Assembly (NCBI GenBank): GCA_030390025.1
Contig: CM059432.1
Coordinates: 100,194,001-100,258,000, forward strand
From: Squalus acanthias
Taxonomy: Eukaryota
Reading direction: 5' to 3'
Length of the DNA stretch: 64,000 bases
Shown: in pieces, positions 1,262-60,767 of the stretch
Numbering within the stretch: the stretch's first letter is position 1
Layout of the letters: every line of letters begins with the position of its first letter
Translations under genes and position numbers: made by a program
The notes under the pieces: model-generated
The model's database searches: none
Told to the model about the DNA's origin: nothing
What the model saw: the letters and a program-made list of their open reading frames with translations, nothing else

Positions 1262-3550
1262 GAAGAAACATAGAAACATAGAAGATAGGAGCAGGAGTAG
1301 GCCATTCGGCCCCTCCAGCTTGCTCCGCCATTCAATGCGATCGCGGCTGATCATCCAAATTCAGAACCCTGTCCCTGCTTTCTCCCCATATCCCTTGATC
1401 CCTTTTGTAAGGGGTTTTGTGTCGTGCTTGTATCGCAGGCGGTGCTGTTACGGGGTTAGGCCTTCGCTGCCTAATATTATTGCTTGCTCTGGTCTCCGGC
1501 CAGCCTTGTTGCAATAAGCACCTGTGAGTGGTTCGACCCACTCGTCCTTACGGTTCTAACACTGGACTTAGGTGCGAGAGCAGTAATGCAGAGAAAACTC
1601 AAATAGACCCGGTTGAATAGTACGAAATGGAAATCTTTATTGCATAGCGTCCAAGATCATGAAGTACATGTCATAGGCGCAAATTAACGAGAGTACAAGT
1701 ATACATACATTCATAAAGCTTGGTCTATGGTAATGAAGAACGCACGGCACATCGTAAAAAGGGGAACACATAATACTTTATCCTTAATAAAACCACCCTC
1801 CCTTATCAATACCTACACTACATCTAGATTTGTAGGATCGGGAAACATGCTCACCACTCGTGATACTTCGGAGAATTTTAAAGTGAGGCGCTCGGCTCGT
1901 TTCGCTGCAGCGCCTGACTGTCACATGTTTTGAGGGGTCTCTGTACCCCACTTGTTTATTTTCGCTGCTGCGACAAGCAGGCTGGGCTCCCCGTTGTCAT
2001 GAAGAACTCGACAGTGCTCGGGCCCGGCTGTAGAACTCAAAGAAAAGTCTTCCTGGACCGACACCAGTTGCCGGTAGAATTCAAAGAAGAGTCTATGACC
2101 AGTTCGTGCAGTAACTGATAGAGTTCGTATAAATTCGGCGCGGTCGGGGTTTACTGACCGCGGTGGCACGTGGATTCTTCTTCTTCTCTTCTCATCTCAT
2201 CTCGTCTCGTCTCTTCGGGCCTTCGGGTCCAAAACACCGTTTACCGACACTCGGGATGGTGCACCCGGTTACTCGCCCTTCGTCGAGGCGGCTCATCCCG
2301 ATTGAGCTCCACCCAACATTCGAATAACCGTCCAGTGCGGCTAAAAGTCCAGAGTCAACAGTCCAGAGAAACAAGAGCACGAATCAAGCGAATAAGAGTC
2401 GAATCAAGAGCATCAGCCGAGATAAGAGAAAAAATAAGAGAGCGATGGACATTTGTTGTCTATAGTTATAGTGCTGTGTTCCCTTATCTCCCGCTCAAAT
2501 CTTAATGTTTGTCCTTTGTGAAATATTGGCGCTCAAAACTCCCAGCATGGGGTGATTCTTGTCTTTAACGGGTTTCGGTAGCACCTGAGACTGGCCAACT
2601 ACCCGTTAATGTTTTCCCCATTGTTGAACCGGCTCTGAGCCTCCCTGGCTGGGTTTTGGGGGCCCCCGAATACTTGTTTAATCACCCGAGAATGGCTCTC
2701 TCATTGTAGAGAAGTGGGGGTATTTGCGTGTTGATGTGTCTGGATGGGCCTTCGATTGCCCAGTACAATGGTCCTTACTTGTGCATGGAAAACGATTCCA
2801 GCACTCATATCTTTTGCTATTGTCACAAATGCAAACAGGTTGCATCCTGTCTTTATCAGTGCTTATCGAAAATGTTTATTCGAACGCCATCTTGTCTGCC
2901 CACTGTACTTCTGGAAACTTCTGCCATGATGCGCGGTGGCCATTTTACAGGCTTCTGTGTCCTGTTTAATCATGATAGCATTTCGTTTAAATAAACTGAT
3001 CAAACGAATCTGCTTCTATCTCGTTATTTCGAATCGCGATAATTGCGAAACTTTACACTTTAGCCTTAAGAAATATATCCAACTCCTTCTTGAATATATT
3101 TAATGAATTGCCTCTACTGCCTTCTGTGGTAGAGAATTCCACAGGTTCACCACTCTCTGGGTGAAGAAATTCCTCCTCATTTCTGTCCTAAATGGCTTAC
3201 CCCTTATCCTTAGACTGTGACCCCTGGTTCTGGACTCCCCGACCATCGGGAACATCCTTCCTGCATCTAGTCTGTCCAGTCCTGTCAGAATTTTATAAGT
3301 TTCAATGAGATCCCCTCTCATTCTTCTAAACTCCAGCGAGTATAAGCCTAATCGACCCAATCTCTCCTCATACGTCATTCCTGCCATCCCAGGTATCAGC
3401 CTGGTGAATCTTCGCTGAACTCCTTCCATGGCAAGAACCTCCTTCCTCAGATAAGGCGACCAAAACTGCACAAAATACTCAAGATGTGGTCTCACCAAGG
3501 CCCTGTACAACTGCAGCAAGACATCCTTGTTCCTGTACTCAAACCCTCTT
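1262..3550 (-). mobile_element. CR1 (HER1-like) 3' part, interrupted by LTR A1
   Basis: ORF 3100-3585 LYRALVRPHLEY...RRMRGDLIETYKI...FFTQRVVNLWNSLP; tail gggccgaatggcctactcctgctcct; near-identical to 40145-40770. Confidence 0.9.
1406..3057 (-). mobile_element. Solo LTR A1 (1652 bp)
   Basis: TGTAA...TTACA ends; TSD CTTT (1402-1405 and 3058-3061) restores the CR1 target; minus-strand TATA-like element near 2465 and AATAAA near 1640. Confidence 0.9.
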
Positions 3551-5396
3551 GACCAATTGAAGTAAATAAGAAATGCAAAAAACACCCTAGATGAAGTGTT
3601 TTTGAATTACAAATTGTAAAAAGTACCTACAGAGAGACTTTGTAGATATTACATCAATAGATGACACCAAGCAATTACATTGTTTATGTGTTAAACTTGG
3701 AACATAAGGAGACAGGAGTCTGTGTTACAAACAGCAGAGGTGATTTAGAAATTCAATAGAAAGACTTCCTAAGAATGGCATCAAATAGATAAATCGTTAA
3801 TAACCATAAAAATGATAAGTTTTTGAAACACCTAAAGGTACAGACAGAATTCTAAGAGTTGGCAGCTGAAATGACAGTAAGAATAGAAAACAATTCAATA
3901 GAGTATCACTAGAGACAATTAGTTTACATCAGCAGATTACTTCAAAGAATAAACCACTAAAAAAAAAGTATAAAAATAAGAGCTTTTCAGATGAAAAGTC
4001 AGAAGTTGCTGGAAGGGCAAGCATTTCTCAACTTCACAGGCACGCTCTGTAAGTTTTTAACTCTGAGTCTCGGGTAATCAAGGTATTTGATTTTGGTGGA
4101 TATTCTGGATTAAGAAATAAGTAGAAGTGTGGAAATGTAACGAAGTTAAGATTTGAGAATAAGGATCTCTGATAAGAAATGTAAACTATTTGTATTTTGA
4201 ACGGTTAAAGTTGCGATTGCCATAACAGCTGTTAACTAAATGTCGGTTCTTTAATAAATCTATATATTTTTAGAATTATCTCACAGAGTATTTCTGTATA
4301 AACTCGCGAACTCAATTTCTGTATACTCAAAGGAGTTGCTGAATTCTGGGGGGTATTCCAGACCCTCATAATATCCGGAAGGTTACAGTCTAGTTAAACT
4401 TATTAAAAGTGATTTCCGGAGTACGGTAACATCTTCACGTCGTTCCTTTCCTTTAGGGAGAGGTAGTCTGACCTTTAGACCCAATTAAGCATCTTATATA
4501 ATTCGGCTATCTTTAACTTTAATTGAAGGTGAATGTCTGGGGAATACGCCTGATCTGGGGTAGCCCGAAAAGGGCTAGGACTTGAAATTATCCCTTCAGT
4601 GTGACTTGGAGGGGAAATTGGAGGTGATGGTATTCCAACAATATTGTTGCTCTTGTCCTTCTCAGTGGTAGATAGATTTGTGCTAAACTTCCACCAAGGT
4701 TACAGTGGCAGAACTTCCCATGGAAAGTATTTCTCTTACATGTTTGTTATTTTAAAACTTGTATTTTTATGTTGTTGGCCGACTAAGGAAAAAATGGATG
4801 CCAATAGGATTTTGAAATAATTTTTGAGTGATTTGATTTATTTAATTTCAGTTTTTTGGTATGTATTTAATTGCATAAAGTTAGAGCTCAGGAGGGTAAA
4901 ATTGGATCTCGATGTGCCCGTTTTCTGAACAGTTGCAATGAGGTCCAATTTAGGGGGCCAACCTCCCATGCTCAAACAGTGTCGGAAACATGTCCATTGG
5001 TTCGTGCGATGTAGAGGCATCTCTGGCGGCCAACTGAAACTGGCGTGAGGTGCCTTGAATATGCTCATAAAGGGCCTAACGCCTGTTTTAGGACCCAAAC
5101 CGGAAATTGCTTTGCCCTGAACATCCTCTCCTCCATTGTTCAGCCCTCAGTTAATTCCACTCTTACCTATTTGATCACAACCAGAGCATCTCCAGCAATG
5201 GCTTCTCCTCTCGACCCTACATTGTTACTTCCAGTTCTCCAATGATCCATCCTTTGACCCCTCATCTTCCTCATCTACATGCTGCCCCTTAGCAACATCA
5301 GCCACAGACATGGAGTCAGCATCCATATGTACACTGATGACACCCAGCTCTACCTTCCCACCAACTTTACTGCCTCTGTGTTGTCAAGATATCCAA

Positions 5397-5544
5397 GGAG
5401 TGAAATTTGACTTGGGCAGGGACGCAAAACAGCCAGTATCACATTGCTCGCCGTTATATGGAACTGAATATCAAGCGGGGTATATAATGGTCGGCCCATG
5501 CAATACCGGCCATTTTAACCCCTCCCCGACTGGAATTTCACCCC
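5397..5544. mobile_element. Short Harbinger-type MITE
   Basis: Imperfect TIRs ggagtgaaattt / gaatttcacccc; interrupts the L2. Confidence 0.5.
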
Positions 5545-24441: not shown

Positions 24442-27400
24442 TGTAAGGGGTTCCGGCGTGCTTGTATCGCAGACGGTGCTGGTGCGAGGTTAGGCCTTCT
24501 TTGCCTAATACTATTGCTTGCTCTGGTCTCCGGCCAGCCTTGTTGCAATAAGCACCTGTGAGTGGTTCGACCCACTCGCCCTTACGGTTCTAACACTGGA
24601 CTTAGGTGCGAGAGCAGCAATGCAGAGAAAAACTCAAATAGACCTGGTTGAATAGTACGAAATGGAAATCTTTATTGCATAGCGTCCAAAATCATGAAGT
24701 ACATGTCATAGGTGCAAATTAACGAGAGTACAAGTATACATACATTCATAAAGCTTGGTCTATTGTAGAATTCGCAATATATCGCGATTTTATTAATAAG
24801 GAGAAAACACAGAGTTTCGTTCAAACAGCTTTTATTTCAGCAGAATGCTGTCAGGTTTCTCAAAGTGGACACAAGCAGCCTGTAAAATGGCCGCCGCACC
24901 TCGTGGCAGAACATTCTAGACTTTTCGACAAGCAGACAAGATGGCGTTCCAATAAACATTTGTGCAAGATCGATTAAGATTCAGCACATTGAAGATAACA
25001 CACGAGACATTATGGGTTTACAGTATACACATAAATACTGAAATCGGTCTCCCAGGTACGAATGAAAGCTATTGTACCAAGTAATCAAGGGCCCATCCAA
25101 AGACATTAATATGTAAAATCCCAACGACTCTACGATGAGAGAGCCGTTAGCGGGTAGTTATACAAAACACTTGGAAGCCCCAAAACCCCTCCAGGGAGAA
25201 CACCGACCGATTTAACAATGGGAGAAATATTAACAGGTACTCAGACATTTACGAGTAGCCCCGAAACCCATTAAGAACGGAGATCACCCATACAAGACAT
25301 TTGAGCGCCAAACCCAAACAAAAGAAAGGACATTAAGGTTGGGCGGGAAACGGAAGATTTTGTACTATAATTACAAGCTCCAACCGTCCATCTTTCTCTT
25401 ATTCTCTTATCCGATCGACTCGTAACCTCGTGGCTGCTCCTGTGTTTTGACTCGTAGTCTTGTTCCTGCTTTGCCTGGTGCCTCTTTGAAAAAGACTGTT
25501 GAACTTTATGATCCGTTCGGATCTACCTCGTGTCGCGTAACGAAGACCTATGTTGGTAACTGGCATCGGAACCAAAGGCCCGAGATGAGATGAGAAGAGA
25601 GGAAGACCATACTCATCGCCACGGTCAGTAAGCCCCGACCGCGCCTGTAGGTCGAATAGCCAAGTTTCCTTGCCAGGGAGACTTCTTTGAACTTGCAAGA
25701 ACAGACCTCGGAAGATCCTCCAAGATGATATTGACTGGTCTGTGAAACCCATTCGGACAGTGCCTGTTAAACCAACCAACACAGATCTTCATCACAGCAG
25801 ACGTTCCAGCCTGCTAGCCGGAGCAGAAGCAAGTAAACAAGTGGGACCAGGAGACCTCCTGATCGATACGTGGGTGCTGCGGTGAAAAACATCCGATCAG
25901 CTATTCGGAATTTCTCCGAGTTATCACGAGTGGTGAGCATGAGTCTCGAAATCCTACGAATCTAGCTAGGACAGATATTGATAGGGGAGGGTTTAAGTAT
26001 TAAGGATACTTGTAATGTGTGCCCCTATTTACGGTGTGTCGTTCGTTCCTCGTTTCCCTAAAATTAGTTATATAACTGCATGTAAGATTGTATTGTCATT
26101 AATCTGTGCTTATGACATGTATTTCATAATCTTAAATATCATGCAATAAAGATTTTCCATTTCGTACCATTCAACCGAGTCTACATGAGTTTCATCTCCA
26201 TTACTGCTCTCGCATCTAAGTCCAGTGTCTAGAACCGTAAGGGCGAGTGATTCGAACCACTCACAGGTGTGTCTAGTGCTTCCAGACTGGCTGGAGACCA
26301 GAACAGGCAACAAGGCCTAAACTCGCACTGACATACAGGCTGCACAGAGCCGCGTGAATCTCACAGGCTGCGAGACACGCACGGTCAAATCCCTTACACT
26401 ATGGTAATGAAGAACACACGGCACATCGTAAAAAGGGGAACACGTTATACTTTATCCTTAATAGAACCACCCTCCCCTATCAATACCTACACTACATCTA
26501 GATTTGTAGGATCGGGAAACATGCTCACCACTCGTGATACTTCGGAGAATTTTAAAGTGAGGCACTCGGCTCGTTTCGCTGCAGCGCCTGACTGTCACGT
26601 GTTTGGCGGGGTCTCTGTACCCCACTTGTTTATCTTCGCTGCTGCGGCAAGCAGGCTGGGCTCCCCGTTGTCATGAAGAACTCGACAGCACTCGGGCCCG
26701 GCTGTAGAACTCAAAGAAAAGTCTTCCTGTACCGACACCAGTTGTCGGTAGAATTCAAAGAAGAGTCTTTGACCGGTTCGTGCAATAACCTGTAGAGTTC
26801 AAGAAGTGGGTCTTATATTTTCAGGCGCAGTCGGGGTTTACTGACCGCGGCGGCACGTGGATTCTTCTTCTTTTCTTGTCATTTCGTCTTGTCTTGTTGG
26901 GCCTTCGGGTCCAGACACCGTTTACCGACTCTCGGGATGGTGCACCCGATCACTTGCCTTCGTCGAGGCGGCTCGTTCCGATTGAGCTCCACCCAACATT
27001 CGAATAACCGTCCAGTGCGGCTAAAGTCCAGAGTCAACAGAGTCCAGAGAAAACGCAGAAGGCTGCTCGTCCAGCAGAGCGATACCCGAGGATCAGAATA
27101 ACAGAATAAGAGTTCAGCCCGAGTCAAGAGTCAGCAGAGAATAAGAGAGCGATGGACATTTGTTCACTATAGTTATAGTGCTGTGTTCCCTTATCTCCCG
27201 CTCAAATCTTAATGTTTGTCCTTTGTGAAATATTGGCGCTCAAAACTCCCAGCATGGGGCGATTCTTGTCTTTAACGGGTTTCGGTAGCACCTGAAACTG
27301 GCCAACTACCCGTTAATGTTTTCCCCATTGTTGAACCGGCTAGGAGCCTTCCTGGCTGGGGTTTGGGGGCCCCCGAATACTTGTTTAATCACCTGAGAAT

Positions 27401-28950: not shown

Positions 28951-30094
28951 GAGTGACAAAGGAAACCCTGAAAGCAATTCCCATTTTAATGAGCTTTCTG
29001 ACGGCACAATCTGTGAATCTGCAGCTTCTGATGCCTGACAGGTGAGAACCGACCTCAGCTGTAGTATTTGTTTCATATGGGTAGATTTAGGACATTGCAC
29101 ATCCACTGCATGAAAATTAGAATTTCGTAGGGCTTCTCCTTAACAAGCAACAATCCAGAAATTAACAAGCATAACATGGCTAAGGCACGGTACAGGAGAT
29201 GTGACGCACTGCCGGTTGACAGTGTGATTTCTGGCAGATGTAAGGCAGGGAGGAGGTGAAACTATCAACCCCCAATATCACTAACCAGTATTCCTGAATT
29301 GCTACTGTCATAATGCTTTATGCCAATAAAAAAAAACTATAAGCTTCGACCAATACTGATTCTTGCAATACTTGGGCTAGAGGAAAAGAATGGACATTCT
29401 GGCCCTCAATTTCCCAATCCACTGTTGCAACTTCAGCAGGACACCTGGAGAAAACTGGTACATTTTTTTAAAATTCATTCACAGGATGTGGGCAGTCACT
29501 GGCAAGGCCAGTATTTATTGCCCATCCCTAATTGCCCTTGAGAAGGTGGTGGTAAGCGCCTTTTTGAACCACTGCAGTCCGTGTGGTGAAGGTAATCCCA
29601 CAGTGCTGTTAGGTAGGGAGTTCCAGGACCCAGTGACAATAAAGAAACGCTGATATATTTCCATGTCAGGATGGCGTGCAACTTGGAGGGGAACTTGGCG
29701 ATGATGGTGTTCCCATGCGCCTGCTGCCCTTGACCTTCTAGGTGATAGAGGTCACGGGTTTGGGAGGTGCTGTCAAAGAAGCCTTGGCAAGTTGCTGCAG
29801 TGCATCTTGTAGATGGTACACACTGCAGCCACGGTGCGCTGGTGGTGGAGGAGTGAATGTTTAAGGTGGTGGATGGGGTGCCAAACAAGTGAGCTGATTT
29901 GTCCTGGATGGTTTCGAGCTTCCTGAGTGTTGTTGGAGCTGCACTCATCCAGGCAAGTGGAGAGTATTCCATCACACTCCTTACTTGTGCCTTGTAGATG
30001 GTAGAAAGGCTTTGGGGAGTCAGGAGGTGAGTCACTTGCCGCAGAATACCTAGCCTCTGACCTGCTCTTGTAGCCACAGTATTTATGTAGCTGG

Positions 30095-31749
30095 TGTAAA
30101 ATTCGCAATTATCGTGATTCGAAATAACGAGATAAAGCAGATTCGTTTCATCAGTTTTATTTCAACGAAATGCTGTCATGATTAAACAGGACACAGAAGC
30201 CTGTAAAATGGCCACCGCACCTCGTGGCAGAAGCTTCCAGAATTTTCAGTGGGCAGACAAGATGGCGTTCGAATAAACATTTCAGTATAAGATTGGTTAA
30301 TACGCAGCAAACACTGATAAAGACAGGATGCAACCTGTCTGCATTCGACACAATAGCAAAGATATAAGTGCTGGAATCATTTTCCATGCACAAGTAAGGA
30401 CCATTGTACTGGGCAATCGAAGGCCCATCCAGATACATCAATACGCAAATTCCCCACGGCTCTACAATGAGAGAGCCATTCTCGGGTACTTACACAAGTA
30501 TTCGGAGGCCCCCAAAACCCCGCCAGGGAGGCTCCTAGCCGGTTCGACAATGGGAAAAACATTAACGGGTAGTTGGCCAGTTTAAGGTGCTACCGAAACC
30601 CATTACAAACAAGAATCACCCCATACTGGGAATTTTGAGCGCCAAGATTTTACAAAGGATGAACATTAAGATTTGGGCAGGAGATAAGGGAACACAGCAC
30701 TATAACTATAGTGAACAAACGTCCATCGCTCTCTTATTCCTCTGATCCTCCCGGCGCTGATTCGTTTGAACTGACTCTGGACGCGGGCTGAACTTTTATT
30801 CTCCTATGTTGGGTGGAGCTCAATTTGGAACGAGTCGCCTCGACGAAGGCCAGTGACCGGGTGCACCATCCCGAGGGTCGGTAAACGGTGTTCTGGACCC
30901 GAAGGCCCGACGAGACGAGATGAGAAGAGAAGAAGAAGAATCCACATGCCGCCGCGGTCAGTAAACCCCGACCGCGCCCGTAAATATAAAGACGATTTTT
31001 GAACTCTATCAGGTTGCTGCTGAACCAGTGGAAGACTCTCTTTCGAATTCTATCGACAACCGATGTCAATACAGGAAGACTCTTCTTTGAATTTTACCGG
31101 TTAACTGGTGTCGGTCCAGAAAGACTTTTCTTTGAATTCTACAGCCGGGCCCGAGCACTGTCGAGTTCTTCATGACAACGGGGAGCCCAGCCTGCTAGCC
31201 GGAGCAGAGAAGATAAACAAGTGGGGTACAGAGACCCCTTCCAACACGTGACAGTCAGGTGTTGCAGCAAAACAAGCCGAGTGCCTCGTTTAAAATTCTC
31301 CGAAGTATCACGAGTGGTGAGCATGTTTCCTCGCTCCTACAAATCTAGATTAGTGTAGGTATTAATAGGGGAGGGTGGTTTTATTAAGGATAAATATAAT
31401 GTGTTCCCCTTTTTATGATGTGCCGTGCGATCCTCATTACCCTAGACCAAGTTTTATGAATGTATGTATAATTGTACTGTCATTAATTTGTGCCTATGAC
31501 ATGTACTTCATGATTTTGGACGTTATGCAATAAAGATTTCCATTTCGTACTATTCAACCGGGTCTATTTGAGTTTTTCTCTGCATTACTGCTCTCGCACC
31601 TAAGTCCAGTGTTAGAACCGTAAGGGCGAGTGGGTCGAACCACTCACAGGTGCTTATTGCAACAAGGCTGGCCGGAGACCAGAGTAAGCAATAGTATTAG
31701 GCAACGAAGGCCTAACCCTGCTCAAGCACCCTGAACCGAACCCCTTACA
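30095..31749 (+). mobile_element. Solo LTR A3 (1655 bp)
   Basis: TGTAA...TTACA; TSD CTGG (30091-30094 and 31750-31753). Confidence 0.92.
30670..30710 (+). promoter_or_regulatory. Putative LTR core promoter (E2F-like/GATA motif plus TATA-like element)
   Basis: gatttgggcaggagataaggg...tataactata; equivalent motif in A1, A2, B and LTR C (gatttggcgggtagataagg...tataatt); YY1-like CAAGATGGCG upstream. Confidence 0.5.
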
Positions 31750-34700: not shown

Positions 34701-35094
34701 CATTTGATGGTTAGGTTGAAGAGAAAAATGTTGCAACATTTCATCACCTGTCTCGGTACCATCAAGTATTTCCTTTCAACCAAGGGAATGGATTATCTGG
34801 AATGAGGTAATAGCGTGTGCTTGGTAGATTTCATGTTCCTGACAGGTCTCACTGCTCATATGAATGTTTTCAATTTATGCCTTCAGGGAATCATACACAG
34901 CAGCCATGGATAATGTAAGTAGTGGGATAAGTCTGCTCTGAAGTGCAACTTCATTGGCTGTGAAGCACTTTATAATGTCCTGAGGCTTTGAAGGATGCTA
35001 TGGAAATCCAAGTGCTTTCACAAAAATGAATCCCTTTGTCTGTGTTGGAATACTTATTAGATTTGTTTTTTGCTGGTTCTGGCACGCACGGAGT

Positions 35095-39747: not shown

Positions 39748-40105
39748 CTGAGCACAAAATCTAGCTGAAACTCCAGTGCAGTACTGAGGGAGTGCTGCAC
39801 TGTTGGAGGCGCCATCTTTCAGATGAGACATTAAACCGAGGCCCTGTCTACTCTCTCAGGTGAACGTAAAAAATCCCATGGCACTATTTTGAAGAAGAGC
39901 AGGGGAGTTATCCCCGGTGTCCTGGCCAATATTTATCCCTCAATCGACATCACTAAAAATACAGATTATCTGGTCATTATCACATTGCTGTTTGTGGGAG
40001 CTTGCTGTGTGCAAATTGGCACTTCAAAAGTACTTCATTGGCTGTTGTCTGTTTTGGGTTGTCCTGAGGTTGTGAAAGGTGCTATATAAATGCAAGTCTT
40101 TCTTT
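39748..40105 (+). mobile_element. DeuSINE, 5'-truncated
   Basis: Deu-domain and gctatataaatgcaagtcttt tail. Confidence 0.85.
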
Positions 40106-48574: not shown

Positions 48575-49022
48575 CCTACTTTTAGAAAAGACTGAACAGG
48601 CGGGGCTCTTTTCTCGAGACAAAAGAAGGCTGAAGGGTGACTTAAAGAGGTCTTTACAATTATGAAGGGGTTTGATAGGATAGATGTAAAGAATGTTTTC
48701 ACCTGTGGGGGAGTCCAAAATTAGAGACCATAAATATTAAGATAGTCACTAATAAATCCAATAAATAATTCAGGAGAAACTTACTTACTCAGAGAACGGT
48801 TAGAATGTGGAACTTGCTACCACATGGAGCAGTTGAGATGAATAGCACAGATGCCTTTAAGGGGAAGCCAGATAAGTGCAGGAGGGAGAAAGGTATAGAA
48901 GGATATGCAGATAGAGTTAGATGAAATAGGGTGGGTAGAGGCTCGTGTGGAGCATAAACACCAGTACAGACCAGTTGGGCCGAATGGCCTGTTTCTGTGT
49001 TGTAAATTCTATGTAATTCCAT
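48575..49022 (+). mobile_element. Older CR1 3' end
   Basis: KRRLKGDL.EVF.IMKGFDR; tail ttgggccgaatggcctgtttctgtg. Confidence 0.8.
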
Positions 49023-50081
49023 GTACTTTAGAAAGGTTCAAAACATATCAGAAAACAAAGATAAGCCAGCCCCTCTCTCCACAGTGAGTACATCTCTGCA
49101 TGATTTTATTTTCCAGTACAATGGAAATTCCAAAACCCCAAAGTTAGTAGCACTATTCTCAGCAATAGCACTGCATGTTACAGGTAGAAACGAAAACAAG
49201 CAAGCTTCTTCTATCGATGCTGGTTTAAAATAGATCGACATGGAACTTCCAGTTAAAGACAAAGCTGTTCAATCAGACAATAAGTGGCAGGAAGCACTAG
49301 AGGGTAAGATATTAAACTAACCTATCAGCTGGAGATCAGAGGAGAAGAAACAAAGGATTTACAGTTCATAAAAATGATATTATCTTGTGAAAATTGGTAC
49401 CAACAAAAAAATTGTATTGTAACAGATATTTTCAAAATACCTGCTTTGCTGACGTTTAACATAGCATCAGGTCCCATCAAAAACAGTAGGCCTGAAATGA
49501 ATGGCCTTAATTGTTCAGGAGCCTTTGCATCTAACCTCACAGATAAACCTACAGGAGAGTTCAGTTTGTTCCTTATACGAGATGCTTGATGCAGAACATT
49601 TGTTATCACCATGGGAAGTAACATTTAACTTATGAGGGGTTTGAAATTGAAGGCACACAGAAAGTATTGATAAGCAAGTAAAACCGTGCAAGAGAAGAAT
49701 TGGGAAACTGATTATTTTGTTCAATATCAATTTGCCACCAGTCCGTAATGAACAGAAACAATCTATTCCAACAAATCAAGCCCTGCTAATAACTAAATGT
49801 CTGATCTTCCAATGCTACACAAACAATTGACAACGACAACAGAAGTGCCAAAACAAAAGGGTTGTACATTAGGAATAAATATTTAGATGTATCCAAAGGC
49901 AACCCTGGTTTCAGATTCAGATTCAAACTCCTTCAAAAATGCCTTAAGTCTAATTAAATCACATTCCAGAATGTATATGCAAGCAAAAATTTGTTTTCTG
50001 ATTTATTATTTGAAAAGATTGACTAGTACACTTAACCTAGGACAGTCCATTCAATCCAAAAAAGTGTATTAAATTACATGA

Positions 50082-51749
50082 TGTAGAATTCGCAATATAT
50101 CGCGATTTTTATTAATAAGGAGAAAACACAGAGTTTCGTTCAGACAGCTTTTGTTTCAGCGGAGTGCTGTCGGGTTTCTCGGGGTGGACACAAGCAGCCT
50201 GTAAAATGGCCGCCGCACCTCGTGACAGAACATTCTAGACTTTTCGACAGGCAGACAAGATGGCGTTCCAATAAACATTTGTGCAAGATCGATTAAGATT
50301 CGGCACATTGAAGATAATACACGAGACATTATGGGTTTACAGTGTGCACATAGGTACTGAAATCGGTCTCCCAAGGTACGAATGAAAGCTATTGTACCAA
50401 GTAATCAAGGGCCCATCCAAAGACATTAATATGTAAAATCCCAACGACTCTACGATGAGAGAGCCGTTAGCGGGTAGTTATACAAAACACTTGGAAGCCC
50501 CGGGGCCCCTCCGGGGAGAACACCGACCGATTTAACAATGGAAGAGATATTGACAGGTGCTCAGGCATTTGCGAGTAGCCCCGAAACCCATTGGGAACGG
50601 AGATCGCCCATACAGGACATTTGAGCGCCAAACCCTAACAAAAGAAGGGACATTGAGGTTGGGCGGGAAACGGAAGGTTTTGTACTATAATTACAAGCTC
50701 CAACCGTCCATCTTTCTCTTATTCTCTTGTCCGATCGACTCGTAACCTCGTGGCTGCTCCTGTGTTTTGACTCGTAGTCTTGTGCCTGCTTGCCTGGTGC
50801 CTCTTTGAAAAAGACTGTTGAACTTTCTGATCCGTTCAGGATCTACCTCGTGTCGCGTAACGAAGACCTATGTTGGTAACTGGCATCGGAACCAAAGGCC
50901 CGAGATGAGATGAGATGAGATGAGATGAGATGAGATGAGATGAGAAGAGAGGAAGACCATACTCATCGCCACGGTCAGTAAATCCCGACCGCGCCTGTAG
51001 GTCGAATAGCCAAGTTTTCCTTGCTAGGGAGACTTCTTTGAACTTGCAAGAATAGACCTTGGAAGATCCTCCAAGATAATATTGACTGGTCTGTGAAACC
51101 CATTCGGACTGTGCCTGTTAAACCAACCAACACAGATCTTCATCACAGCAGACGGTCCAGCCTGCTAGCCGGAGCAGAAGCAAGTAAACAAGTGGGACCA
51201 GGAGATCTCCTGATCGACACGTGGGTGCTGCGGTGAAAAACATCCGATCAGCTATTCGGAATTTCTCCGAGTTATCACGAGTGGTGAGCATGAGTCTCGA
51301 AATCCTACGAATCTAGCTAGGACAGATATTGATAGGGGAGGGTTTAAGTATTAAGGATACTTGTAATGTGTGCCCCTATTTACGGTGTGTCGTTCGTTCC
51401 TCGTTTCCCTAGGATTAGCTATATAACTGCTTGTAAGATTGTACTGTCATTAATCTGTGCTTATGACATGTATTTCATAATCTTAAATATCATGCAATAA
51501 AGATTTTCCATTTCGTACCATTCAACCGAGTCTACATGAGTTTCATCTCCATTACTGCTCTCGCATCTAAGTCCAGTGTCTAGAACCGTAAGGGCGAGTG
51601 ATTCGAACCACTCACAGGTGTGTCTAGTGCTCCCAGACTGGCTGGAGACCAGAACAGGCAACAAGGCCTAAACCTGCACTGACACACAGGCTGCACAGAG
51701 CCGCGTGAATCTCACAGGCTGCGAGACACGCACGGTCAAATCCCTTACA
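50082..51749 (+). mobile_element. Solo LTR B2 (1668 bp) with A>G-hypermutated U3
   Basis: TGTAG...TTACA; TSD ATGA (50078-50081 and 51750-51753); colinear with B1. Confidence 0.93.
50902..50945 (+). repeat. (GAGAT)n microsatellite expansion in LTR B2
   Basis: About 8 units versus about 2 in B1. Confidence 0.95.
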
Positions 51750-52101
51750 ATGAACATCTTGAAATCTTCATGAATTATGTCATTAAGTGGTGCAGTGGGT
51801 AGCACACTGTCCTTTTCCCTCTAGGACCAAATTCATATTCGGCCAGATTGATGCTACAAAACTTTCAGTCCACTGATGGCTGCAAAAGTCTTGTGCAGAA
51901 AAAGTTGGCACAGTTTCAACCAAATTTCTAGTGAACTTTTCCACATTACAAAAGCACATTTCAAGTTTGGGAACGATGAATAAGGTATAGGAAGGGAGTT
52001 CCAGAGAGCAGGAACAGGATGGCTGAAGGCTCTGATCCTTTCCTCCATCTTGGTTCTCTCCTCAAAAACAGTTTCCACTGCATCACATCCCTTTTGCCAA
52101 G

Positions 52102-52119
52102 GTCCTTCCGCGGTCGCCA
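52102..52119 (-). promoter_or_regulatory. Primer binding site complementary to the tRNA-Arg 3' end
   Basis: Minus strand TGGCGACCGCGGAAGGAC, 3 nt after the LTR CA; the + strand differs at one base from the vertebrate tRNA-Arg(TCG) end GTCCTGCCGCGGTCGCCA as I recall it. Confidence 0.8.
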
Positions 52120-52122
52120 TTC

Positions 52123-53369
52123 TGTAGGGGGTGGTGGTTTGTGTCAGCTTTGCCTCTGACTTCTGAGCGGTTCGAATCGCTCCCACTCCCTTGGTTCTAG
52201 ACCTTGGACTTATTCGGGGGTTGTGATACAAAAGGTGCAGCAGACAGCTGAGTTTGATGAAAAGAACTTCAATCTTTATTCAAAAGGTAAAACACAAATG
52301 ACAACACTCTTAACACTCTAAAGGTGGGGAACACTTCGGTACAAGCGAGGGAACTGACAGTAGAACAATACTTCACCCCACCCAACCCCACTTTACTAGC
52401 TAAGTTAGGTTTTGAAGGACCAGGGATAATGCTCACCAATCCTTTGACAGTTGGGCTAAATCGCGGTTTTGAGGTTCGCTGTTTATGGTGGTTAGTGTCT
52501 GCCATACCCCGTACGCGGTAGAGGACTTCACCTGCATCTCTGGTCAGTCTTCGTGAGTGGTGAGCGATGCCGACTCGTTCCAGTTCAGTTTGTCTTCTTC
52601 CTGGTTTCTTCTTCTTCTAATGACCACCGACTGCGACTGACTGACCTTGAACTGCTTAACGGGCCTTCAATTATACTGAATTGAAGTGGCCTTATCTACC
52701 CGCCAAATCTACTCAGTTCATTGTCTGGTTTTTGGCGGACTCGTAAATCGGTAACGACTTACTAGCGCGTTAACTGGTTTTTTAACAGTCCTTTAATCTC
52801 ACCCATTGAACATGGCCTTATCTACCCGCCAAATCTACTCAGTTCATTGTCTGAATTTTGGCGGGCCTGTTACCAGTAACTGCTCTGTAAGTGTCAGATG
52901 GCCTTTGGGATGGTTTGCATCCTGTCGATCTCCTTGGCTGATCACTGGTGATTGGTTTTGTGTTTCTAGGCTGGACTCGGTCTTTTCTATAGAATGGTCC
53001 TGAGTGATTTGTATTATGCATGTTTTCTGATGGGCCCTGTAATTGGTTTGATGGGGCCTGTTATTTTGGGTGGGACTGTCTTCTCCCAGGGTCTATTGTT
53101 CAAATGTTAATGTCTGCTGGGGCTTGAGTGGGGTCATCCCGGTTCCCCAGACAGTGCAATTAACTGCAATAACCAAAACTGCTTTTACAGAGGTCGAACC
53201 CACCTCCTTGTCCCTTTACAGGCCCAGACATAGTTTTAAAATGCCAAAACTTGGTTTTTGGTCTTAAATTCCTTAGGTTAGGCCGAAACGCATTTTTATC
53301 ACTCTGAGGTAGTTCCAAAGTCTTTTTTCCTTAGGTTTTTGGGGACCTGCAAATTTTGGAAACCTTACA
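52123..53369 (-). mobile_element. 5' LTR (family C, 1247 bp) of a truncated LTR retroelement, inside L2 remnants
   Basis: TGTAAGG...CCCCTACA on the minus strand; PBS follows; AATAAA near 52278; ~40-bp direct repeat at 52687 and 52813. Confidence 0.85.
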
Positions 53370-55858: not shown

Positions 55859-56280
55859 CTCCAGTCCCACTCCAGAGACTTGAGCATAAAAATCTAGGCT
55901 GACACTCCAGTGCAGCGCTGAGGGAGAACTGCACTGTCTGATGTGCCATCTTTCAGATGAGATGTTAAACCGAGGCCCCTTCTGCTATCCCAGGTGAACA
56001 TAAAAGATCCCATGGCACTAATTCGAAGAAAAGCAGGGGATTTATCCCCAGTGTCCTGGCCAATATTTATCCCTCAATCAGCATAACACAAACAGATTAT
56101 CTGGTCACTTTCCCATTGCTGTTTATGGGACCTTGCTGTGCGCAAATTGGCTGCCACGTTTTCTACATTACAACAATGACTACACTTGAAAAGTACTTCA
56201 TTGGTTGTAAAGCGCTTTGAGACGTCCAGTGGTCGTGAAAAGGCGCTATCTAAATGCAAGTCTTTCTTTTTTTCTTTTTT
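55859..56280 (+). mobile_element. DeuSINE
   Basis: Deu-domain plus gcgctatctaaatgcaagtcttt tail. Confidence 0.85.
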
Positions 56281-60644: not shown

Positions 60645-60767
60645 GTAAGTTCTTTCCTAAATTACAACAGTGACTACACTCCAAAAGTACTTCATTGGCA
60701 GTAAAGCGCTTTGAGATATCCGGTGGACGTGAAAGGTGTTATATAAATCCAAGTCTTTCTTTCTTTT
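60645..60767 (+). mobile_element. DeuSINE 3' tail fragment
   Basis: aaagtacttcattggc...agcgctttgaga...tatataaatccaagtcttt. Confidence 0.75.

Follow-up and report, generated by a model that had tools for sequence, protein, structure and literature searches.

Clusters of A-to-G hypermutation of the ADAR type have been described in exogenous retroviruses, with RAV-1 (Felder 1994), avian leukosis virus (Hajjar and Linial 1995), and HTLV-2/STLV-3 in culture (Ko 2012) cited as examples (PMC8586724). In these cases, as in the family described here, the A>G clusters lie in proviral DNA, and for RAV-1 the title of the original report places them in U3. In contrast to the cases cited in PMC8586724, the insertions analyzed here are germ-line insertions, comprise at least 15 independent events with a recurrent left border, and include one edited U3 that appears to have founded a lineage. 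APOBEC editing of endogenous retroviruses (ERVs) resembles the present case as the work of a host deaminase that leaves strand-biased clusters before integration, but it yields G>A via minus-strand DNA, whereas the changes reported here are A>G (PMC4866542). The ERV/LTR screen of Knisbacher and Levanon retained G>A only and had a filter that removed dominant A>G, other mismatches being described as very rare, and ADAR is not mentioned in its main text (PMC4866542). For Mtv61, a mouse endogenous MMTV, a 5' A>G excess was reported and ADAR was considered, as here; according to that report no ADAR context was present, in contrast to the strong and repeated context in our family (PMC12548423). In a literature search of main texts, including few subscription papers, ADAR-type edits fixed in endogenous proviruses were not found.

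Lokiretroviruses carry gag, pol, and env between LTRs, a tether plus RNase H, and an Env similar to class I F fusion proteins (Wang and Han, PMC7947760). The ERV family at the present locus has the same gene layout and tether plus RNase H, and its Env may be F-like; it differs in an Env cleavage site RQRR in place of RXKR and in a weakly immunoglobulin-like Env N terminus, and the host classes given in PMC7947760 do not include cartilaginous fishes. A degenerate U3 motif matched 3,038 sites, i.e. the family has about 3,000 LTR sites. In one natural copy, gag, a stop codon, pro-pol, and env were found between the LTRs, with pol encoding reverse transcriptase (RT), a tether-like RNase H (PF17919/PF17917) followed by a second RNase H (PF00075), and integrase. 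The gag gene was assigned from position and motifs, its Pfam search giving no match. The solved structures that best matched the RT were p80 RT/RNase H and Pr125Pol, which we take to be of MLV and foamy type, ahead of Ty3. Env had no match in Pfam, including the fusion glycoprotein PF00523, and the atlas clusters found for its C-terminal half at 0.92-0.94 carry Fusion_gly, Baculo_F, or Gypsy. Ahead of this F-like half, Env (L055:6612-9155) gave weak immunoglobulin V-like matches at residues ~150-240 (E 0.15-1). Because the cleavage site reads RQRR and not RXKR, the family is filed only as lokiretrovirus-like, a label based on its gene and domain content. A common deleted form lacks internal positions ~1845-5465, most of pol (L191, L192, L194, L203); several edited elements are of this form and so would have moved in trans. 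LTR arrays with at least four LTRs at 7.7 or 11 kb spacing also occur in the family (G000:C1:143653266-143676471; G000:C1147).

The window, i.e. the whole stretch of 64,000 nucleotides that was analyzed, contains two plus-strand LTRs of this family, B1 (24764..26398) and B2 (50082..51749, TGT...ACA ends). B2 is flanked by the 4-bp target-site duplication ATGA (50078..50081 and 51750..51753) and B1 by CTAT. As each has its own duplication, they are two separate solo LTRs and not the pair of one element. They align over their full length with 57 substitutions; B1 is a sister of B2 without the edits and supplies the coordinate frame for LTR positions. A plus-strand A-family LTR (30079..31691, ends approximate), ~68-76% identical, served as outgroup. 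The sense strand of the B LTRs was fixed in full elements by the upstream polypurine tract and the downstream primer-site sequence. A likely core promoter at 50662..50690 (plus strand) consists of GGCGGGAA, presumably E2F-like, and TATAA, present in 106/108 and 108/108 copies, respectively; from it a U3/R border at about 50715-50725 is predicted as likely. Since this TATAA, at LTR 603, is invariant and has an A-family counterpart (611-624), and a second TATA at ~1306 is variable, the label U3 is probably right for the edited part of the LTR. A plus-strand AATAAA at 51496..51501, found in 106/108 copies, is likely close to the 3' end of a long R. The presumed R would be unusually long (~770 nt) and includes a GAGAT microsatellite of variable length (50903-50945). 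Another conserved plus-strand element, CCAATAAA at 50268-50275 (~LTR 188), is present in 105/108 copies of the B family, in the second subfamily, and in 3/3 A-family LTRs; it could be a CCAAT box or a poly(A) signal, and the first edit of one event lies exactly there (191). Four copies of a SINE-like tail, presumably of the shark/ray HE1 type, were seen in the window (34936-35021, 40020-40105, 56183-56268, and 60677-60762); judged by this tail, a cartilaginous fish is the probable host. An Rfam search of positions 49000-53000 gave no match.

The earlier note on this DNA had described a cluster of A>G differences between B1 and B2, and a pairwise recount gave the same picture: 35 substitutions up to 50677, 31 of them with A in B1 against G in B2, 3 A>G among the remaining 22 differences, a 5' G at just 2 of the changed As, and an unchanged gap at 50355-50501. 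Not all 31 sites are changes in B2, however; at 50250 and 50565 B2 carries the majority base, the rest stand, and 50729 was added. Compared with 30 other copies (B1 and 29 further loci), the private set of B2 comprises 30 A>G and a single G>A, a column in which B2 has A and all other copies have G. In the assembled sequence, 29-30 of the 30 other copies have A at the 30 private A>G sites. At these sites the A-family LTR shows A 21 times, G 4 times, and another base or a gap 5 times. The case named in the note as refuting, G as the usual state of the family, is thereby excluded. The changes occupy 50143..50729 (plus strand, LTR positions 61-646), with changeless gaps at 50184-50301 and 50355-50501. 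Relative to its nearest sister, the changed As of B2 amount to 30/226 in LTR 1-650 and to 0/258 beyond (Fisher p 4e-11). Besides the A>G set the two differ at only 4 positions in 1634 nt, from which the B2 insertion is judged very young; none of the 40 copies scored in the similarity search was more than 95% identical to B2.

Further edited insertions were sought in the rest of the family. Similarity searches for edited relatives of B2 returned 73 distinct other copies, none with an A>G cluster, and a position-ordered sample of copies gave 0/30. Motifs demanding G within A runs were then applied, with 13, 44 (30 examined), and 16 matches. Together they represent 15 independent events from subfamilies close to B2, each event having between 15 and 154 A>G, so that B2 and at least 14 other independent insertions are edited in the same stretch of the LTR. 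Six of the seven clear events from the third motif were known before, and a Chapman estimate from the first two motifs gave 23 events. This suggests a total of about 15-25 such events, or ~1% of insertions, a figure that is a lower bound because the motif flanks fit older subfamilies poorly. A mirror T>C control motif (C in a T run) gave 0 matches, its flanks being exact in 91/108 unedited copies. An R-region motif for edited copies also gave 0 matches (flanks fitting 76/108); copies edited only outside U3 were probed with this single motif. A second U3 motif, whose flanks fit just 5/30 copies, matched B2 alone. The pooled count omits copies with few or subfamily-shared changes (L090, L094-L097, L148, L150, L151, L156, L218, L220, L221), duplicate LTRs of one element, copies 12-20% distant with no sister to polarise them (L138, L142, L144, L149, L157), and L208/L216, a later find that is the 15th event in the tally. 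The subfamilies of L138, L142, L144, L149, and L157, 15-20% from B1, show a G excess at ~LTR 40-650 only, with 60-134 unpolarised A>G.

The mutational spectrum was determined for the 14 pooled events, the two natural copies closest to each event serving as its reference. A>G was found at 755/2720 As in LTR 56-615, a rate inflated by the choice of events with U3 motifs, which did not select for context, spectrum, or borders. Outside this tract the counts were 7/252 at positions 1-55, 49/755 at 616-900, 44/1431 at 901-1340, and 13/896 beyond 1340. Within it, the other transitions stayed at ~1-2.5% (G>A 40/1596, T>C 19/1613, C>T 16/1698), and A>T and A>C were counted 21 and 10 times. The sense-strand G>A expected of APOBEC is thus not seen, A being the usual state. 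The A>G rate depended on the 5' neighbor (T 0.40, A 0.37, C 0.25, G 0.10), with 59/618 As edited after G and 696/2071 after other bases (p 3e-36); in B2 alone the values were 1/43 and 29/162. For the 3' neighbor the rates were G 0.33, A 0.34, C 0.21, and T 0.21, so that 3' G exceeds C and T but not A. Two elements edited in one LTR could be compared with their own partner LTR, and here 10/44 and 7/43 As after G were edited, against 31/37 and 24/37 after T. The motif described for ADAR has G depleted 5' and enriched 3' of the edited A (PMC4365171). The 5' depletion is matched strongly, the 3' enrichment just relative to C and T (PMC4365171). Both the direction A>G on the LTR sense strand and the clustering with avoidance of 5' G, claimed before for B2, thus hold in B2 and in 14 further insertions. 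The observation on B2 is confirmed as real and is wider than first described. The recurrent left border at LTR 60, the elements edited in one LTR, and a spreading edited lineage go beyond the first account.

The time of the changes was addressed with paired LTRs, for which the earlier note had proposed a search. Five elements have one and the same edit set in their two LTRs, with total differences at 5, 2, 1-2, 8, and 2 positions, and the paired LTRs with identical sets lie 7.6-11 kb apart; in a tandem array, two of three LTRs share edits. Both U3s of a provirus derive from the 3' end of the RNA. Edits common to both LTRs therefore precede integration, as had been proposed. No partner LTR was found for L134, L138, L139, L143, and L147, and the partner of L133 is truncated. 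In the internal regions of five edited elements A>G was about equal to G>A, with a longest A>G run of 4; 1.4 kb upstream of eight edited 3' LTRs showed no A>G excess, and gag-pol-env had A>G at background. The paired LTRs L140/L141, with ~70 common edits, differ at two adjacent A/G sites (LTR 337-338). In the tandem three-LTR array (L087, L088, L091; G000:C26), only six A/G sites, located in U3, distinguish the third LTR from the second, as if a second round of editing had hit an edited lineage; its outer flanks are mismatched.

The changes are A>G only, on the sense strand, with ADAR-like neighbors, confined to U3, recurrent, and present in both LTRs of one insertion. The best reading, in which we have considerable confidence, would be ADAR editing of genomic ERV RNA captured by reverse transcription. 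Full-length sense ERV RNA would become double-stranded over its 3' U3 and then be hyper-edited from A to I by ADAR. The edited RNA would still be packaged, its I would be converted to G by reverse transcription, and the product would integrate in a cell of the germ line; later LTR-LTR recombination would have left the solo LTR B2.

The two one-sided elements are not yielded by the standard reverse-transcription pathway. In the first, whose flanks match (TGCT), 147 sites at positions 60-909 are G in the 3' LTR and A in the 5' LTR; the LTRs otherwise differ at 3 positions. In the second, also with matching flanks, the 5' LTR has ~98 edits, all within 61-612, and the 3' LTR has none. Plus-strand (second) transfer is generally intramolecular in culture and has been argued to be possibly intermolecular in vivo (PMC5651808). 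We somewhat favor an origin of these elements in particles that had packaged an edited RNA together with an unedited one, by intermolecular plus-strand transfer, or in gene conversion by cDNA. They are also the main support for an alternative at the DNA stage, in which the plus DNA strand of an integrated LTR pairs with an antisense RNA in an R-loop and dA within this hybrid is deaminated by ADAR. The primary events would then be the one-LTR elements, and the two-LTR elements would be daughters of parents edited in the 3' LTR, which directly accounts for both one-sided elements as well as for the plus-strand direction and a border at the antisense end. ADAR acts on the DNA strand of such hybrids in vitro. 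However, each of the five two-LTR elements has a unique pattern with no parent among the copies examined, and 60-85% of the As over 550-850 nt of chromosomal DNA would have to be deaminated and left unrepaired, for which we know of no precedent. We consider this alternative unlikely.

Misincorporation by RT, with dC placed opposite A under skewed dNTP pools while minus-strand synthesis copies U3 first after the jump, would also act before integration and predicts sense-strand A>G starting at the U3/R junction. It leaves unexplained the fourfold avoidance of 5' G and the stop at LTR 60 in 10/15 events, seen again in the second subfamily, and env and the adjacent 3' untranslated region are clean even beside 130-150 edits, so that it appears very unlikely. 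An origin after integration, through error-prone DNA repair of the polymerase-eta type (WA>WG) or through ordinary drift, is extremely improbable. The preferred 5' T and 5' A agree with such repair, but As after C are edited 2.5 times as often as As after G, the T>C counterpart was not found, A>T and A>C stay at background beside 755 A>G, and the same edit sets in both LTRs of one insertion largely refute it. An assembly artefact, or B1 as the derived copy (G>A by APOBEC or CpG decay), is likewise extremely improbable, since in the assembled sequence A is the usual state in 29-30/30 copies and in the outgroup, paired LTRs at a distance of 7.6-11 kb as well as eight unlinked insertions have identical edit sets, and the target-site duplications are intact.

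The first edit lies at LTR 60-62 in 10/15 events and at 29, 35, 79, 100, and 191 in the other five. Of As with a favorable 5' neighbor, 0/58 were edited in LTR 1-28, 6/97 in 29-50 (most of them from one element), and 101/154 in 56-130. The left border is just inside a minus-strand AATAAA (50150..50155, LTR 68-73), a candidate antisense poly(A) signal that is intact in 108/108 unedited copies, in 22/22 non-carriers of the second subfamily, and, at ~78-86, in 3/3 A-family LTRs, against a baseline of 77/610 invariant U3 hexamers. In B2 the edit at 50153 destroys it. Minus-strand cleavage would fall near LTR 52-58, and a GU/U-rich stretch follows the signal on the minus strand (50122..50132), possibly as its downstream element; the plus-strand As of this stretch are almost never edited. 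Given RNA editing by ADAR, and because of this border, it seems fairly probable that the duplex partner is an antisense RNA ending at the conserved minus-strand signal, at ~LTR 52-58, the end of this RNA setting the left border. The element edited down to LTR 29 fits a second minus-strand AATAAA at LTR 26-31 (50108..50113), which is present in 101/108 copies and mostly absent in the second subfamily; first edits at 35, 79, 100, and 191 could reflect low density or template switching. L134, L143, and L158 align only from 47-51, near the presumed antisense 3' end, the sequence upstream being unrelated. On the right, the tracts mostly end by 613-646, adjoining the invariant TATAA (603), and three events enter the presumed R. 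Since the 5' end of the RNA is the template for R and U5, this suggests that in most tracts the U3/R junction forms the right border, at a position deduced from sequence features; an early strand jump might carry some R edits across it. A linkage test for the U3/R border showed no clear break (106 copies, 157 sites).

Other sources of double-stranded RNA were considered. A hairpin within U3 was rejected, since no long inverted repeat was found (longest 25 nt at 72%), and so was a fold of U3, which was modest (z -2.8, 20 shuffles). No inverted LTR copy or long inverted repeat was found in the internal region. Just upstream of the edited 3' LTRs L133 and L139 lies an inverted piece of the same family (L196 and L197), a possible local source of antisense read-through. 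Precedents for the proposed RNA are MLV asU3 and HIV-1 antisense RNAs, which start in U3 or R; those known RNAs run into the viral body or host DNA, whereas the proposed one would end inside U3 (PMC8145503).

An edited U3 also appears to have spread. In a second subfamily, ~13% distant, 12 of the 13 As in LTR 56-130 are G, the block starting at 60 and destroying the minus-strand poly(A) signal. The block was found in eight insertions at different contigs or loci (six with the full block in the alignment, one with 9/12, and one aligned at just 7/12 sites); in 22 sister LTRs each of the 12 sites is A. The simplest reading is a single editing event in a founder that kept moving. Tentatively, the ERV may make its own short antisense U3 RNA that forms a duplex at the genomic RNA's 3' end and thereby directs ADAR to precisely the non-coding control region, with gag, pol, and env left untouched; about 1 in 100 insertions would receive a heavily rewritten U3, and some of these would lose the antisense stop signal and found subfamilies.

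RNA editing is normally not inherited. Here, judged from the genomic copies, RNA edits seem to have entered inherited DNA repeatedly, at least 15 times in one family. The edited LTRs would be the RNA-level counterpart of the APOBEC fossils of mammals and birds, a class that G>A screens would discard. As each edited copy would record one RNA molecule, the set would map a germ-cell double-stranded RNA; it points to a putative unannotated antisense RNA and would date ADAR action on an ERV in an early-branching vertebrate. The one-sided elements bear on the natural frequency of intermolecular plus-strand transfer, and they caution that dating by LTR-LTR divergence can mislead, with ~8% divergence between LTRs otherwise 3 sites apart. 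The shared 12-edit block suggests that editing can seed new LTR variants, besides causing damage. If the antisense RNA is indeed made by the ERV itself, the fossil record would show the start and the end of the duplex, and ADAR would continually supply the germ line with heritable regulatory variation in a targeted way.
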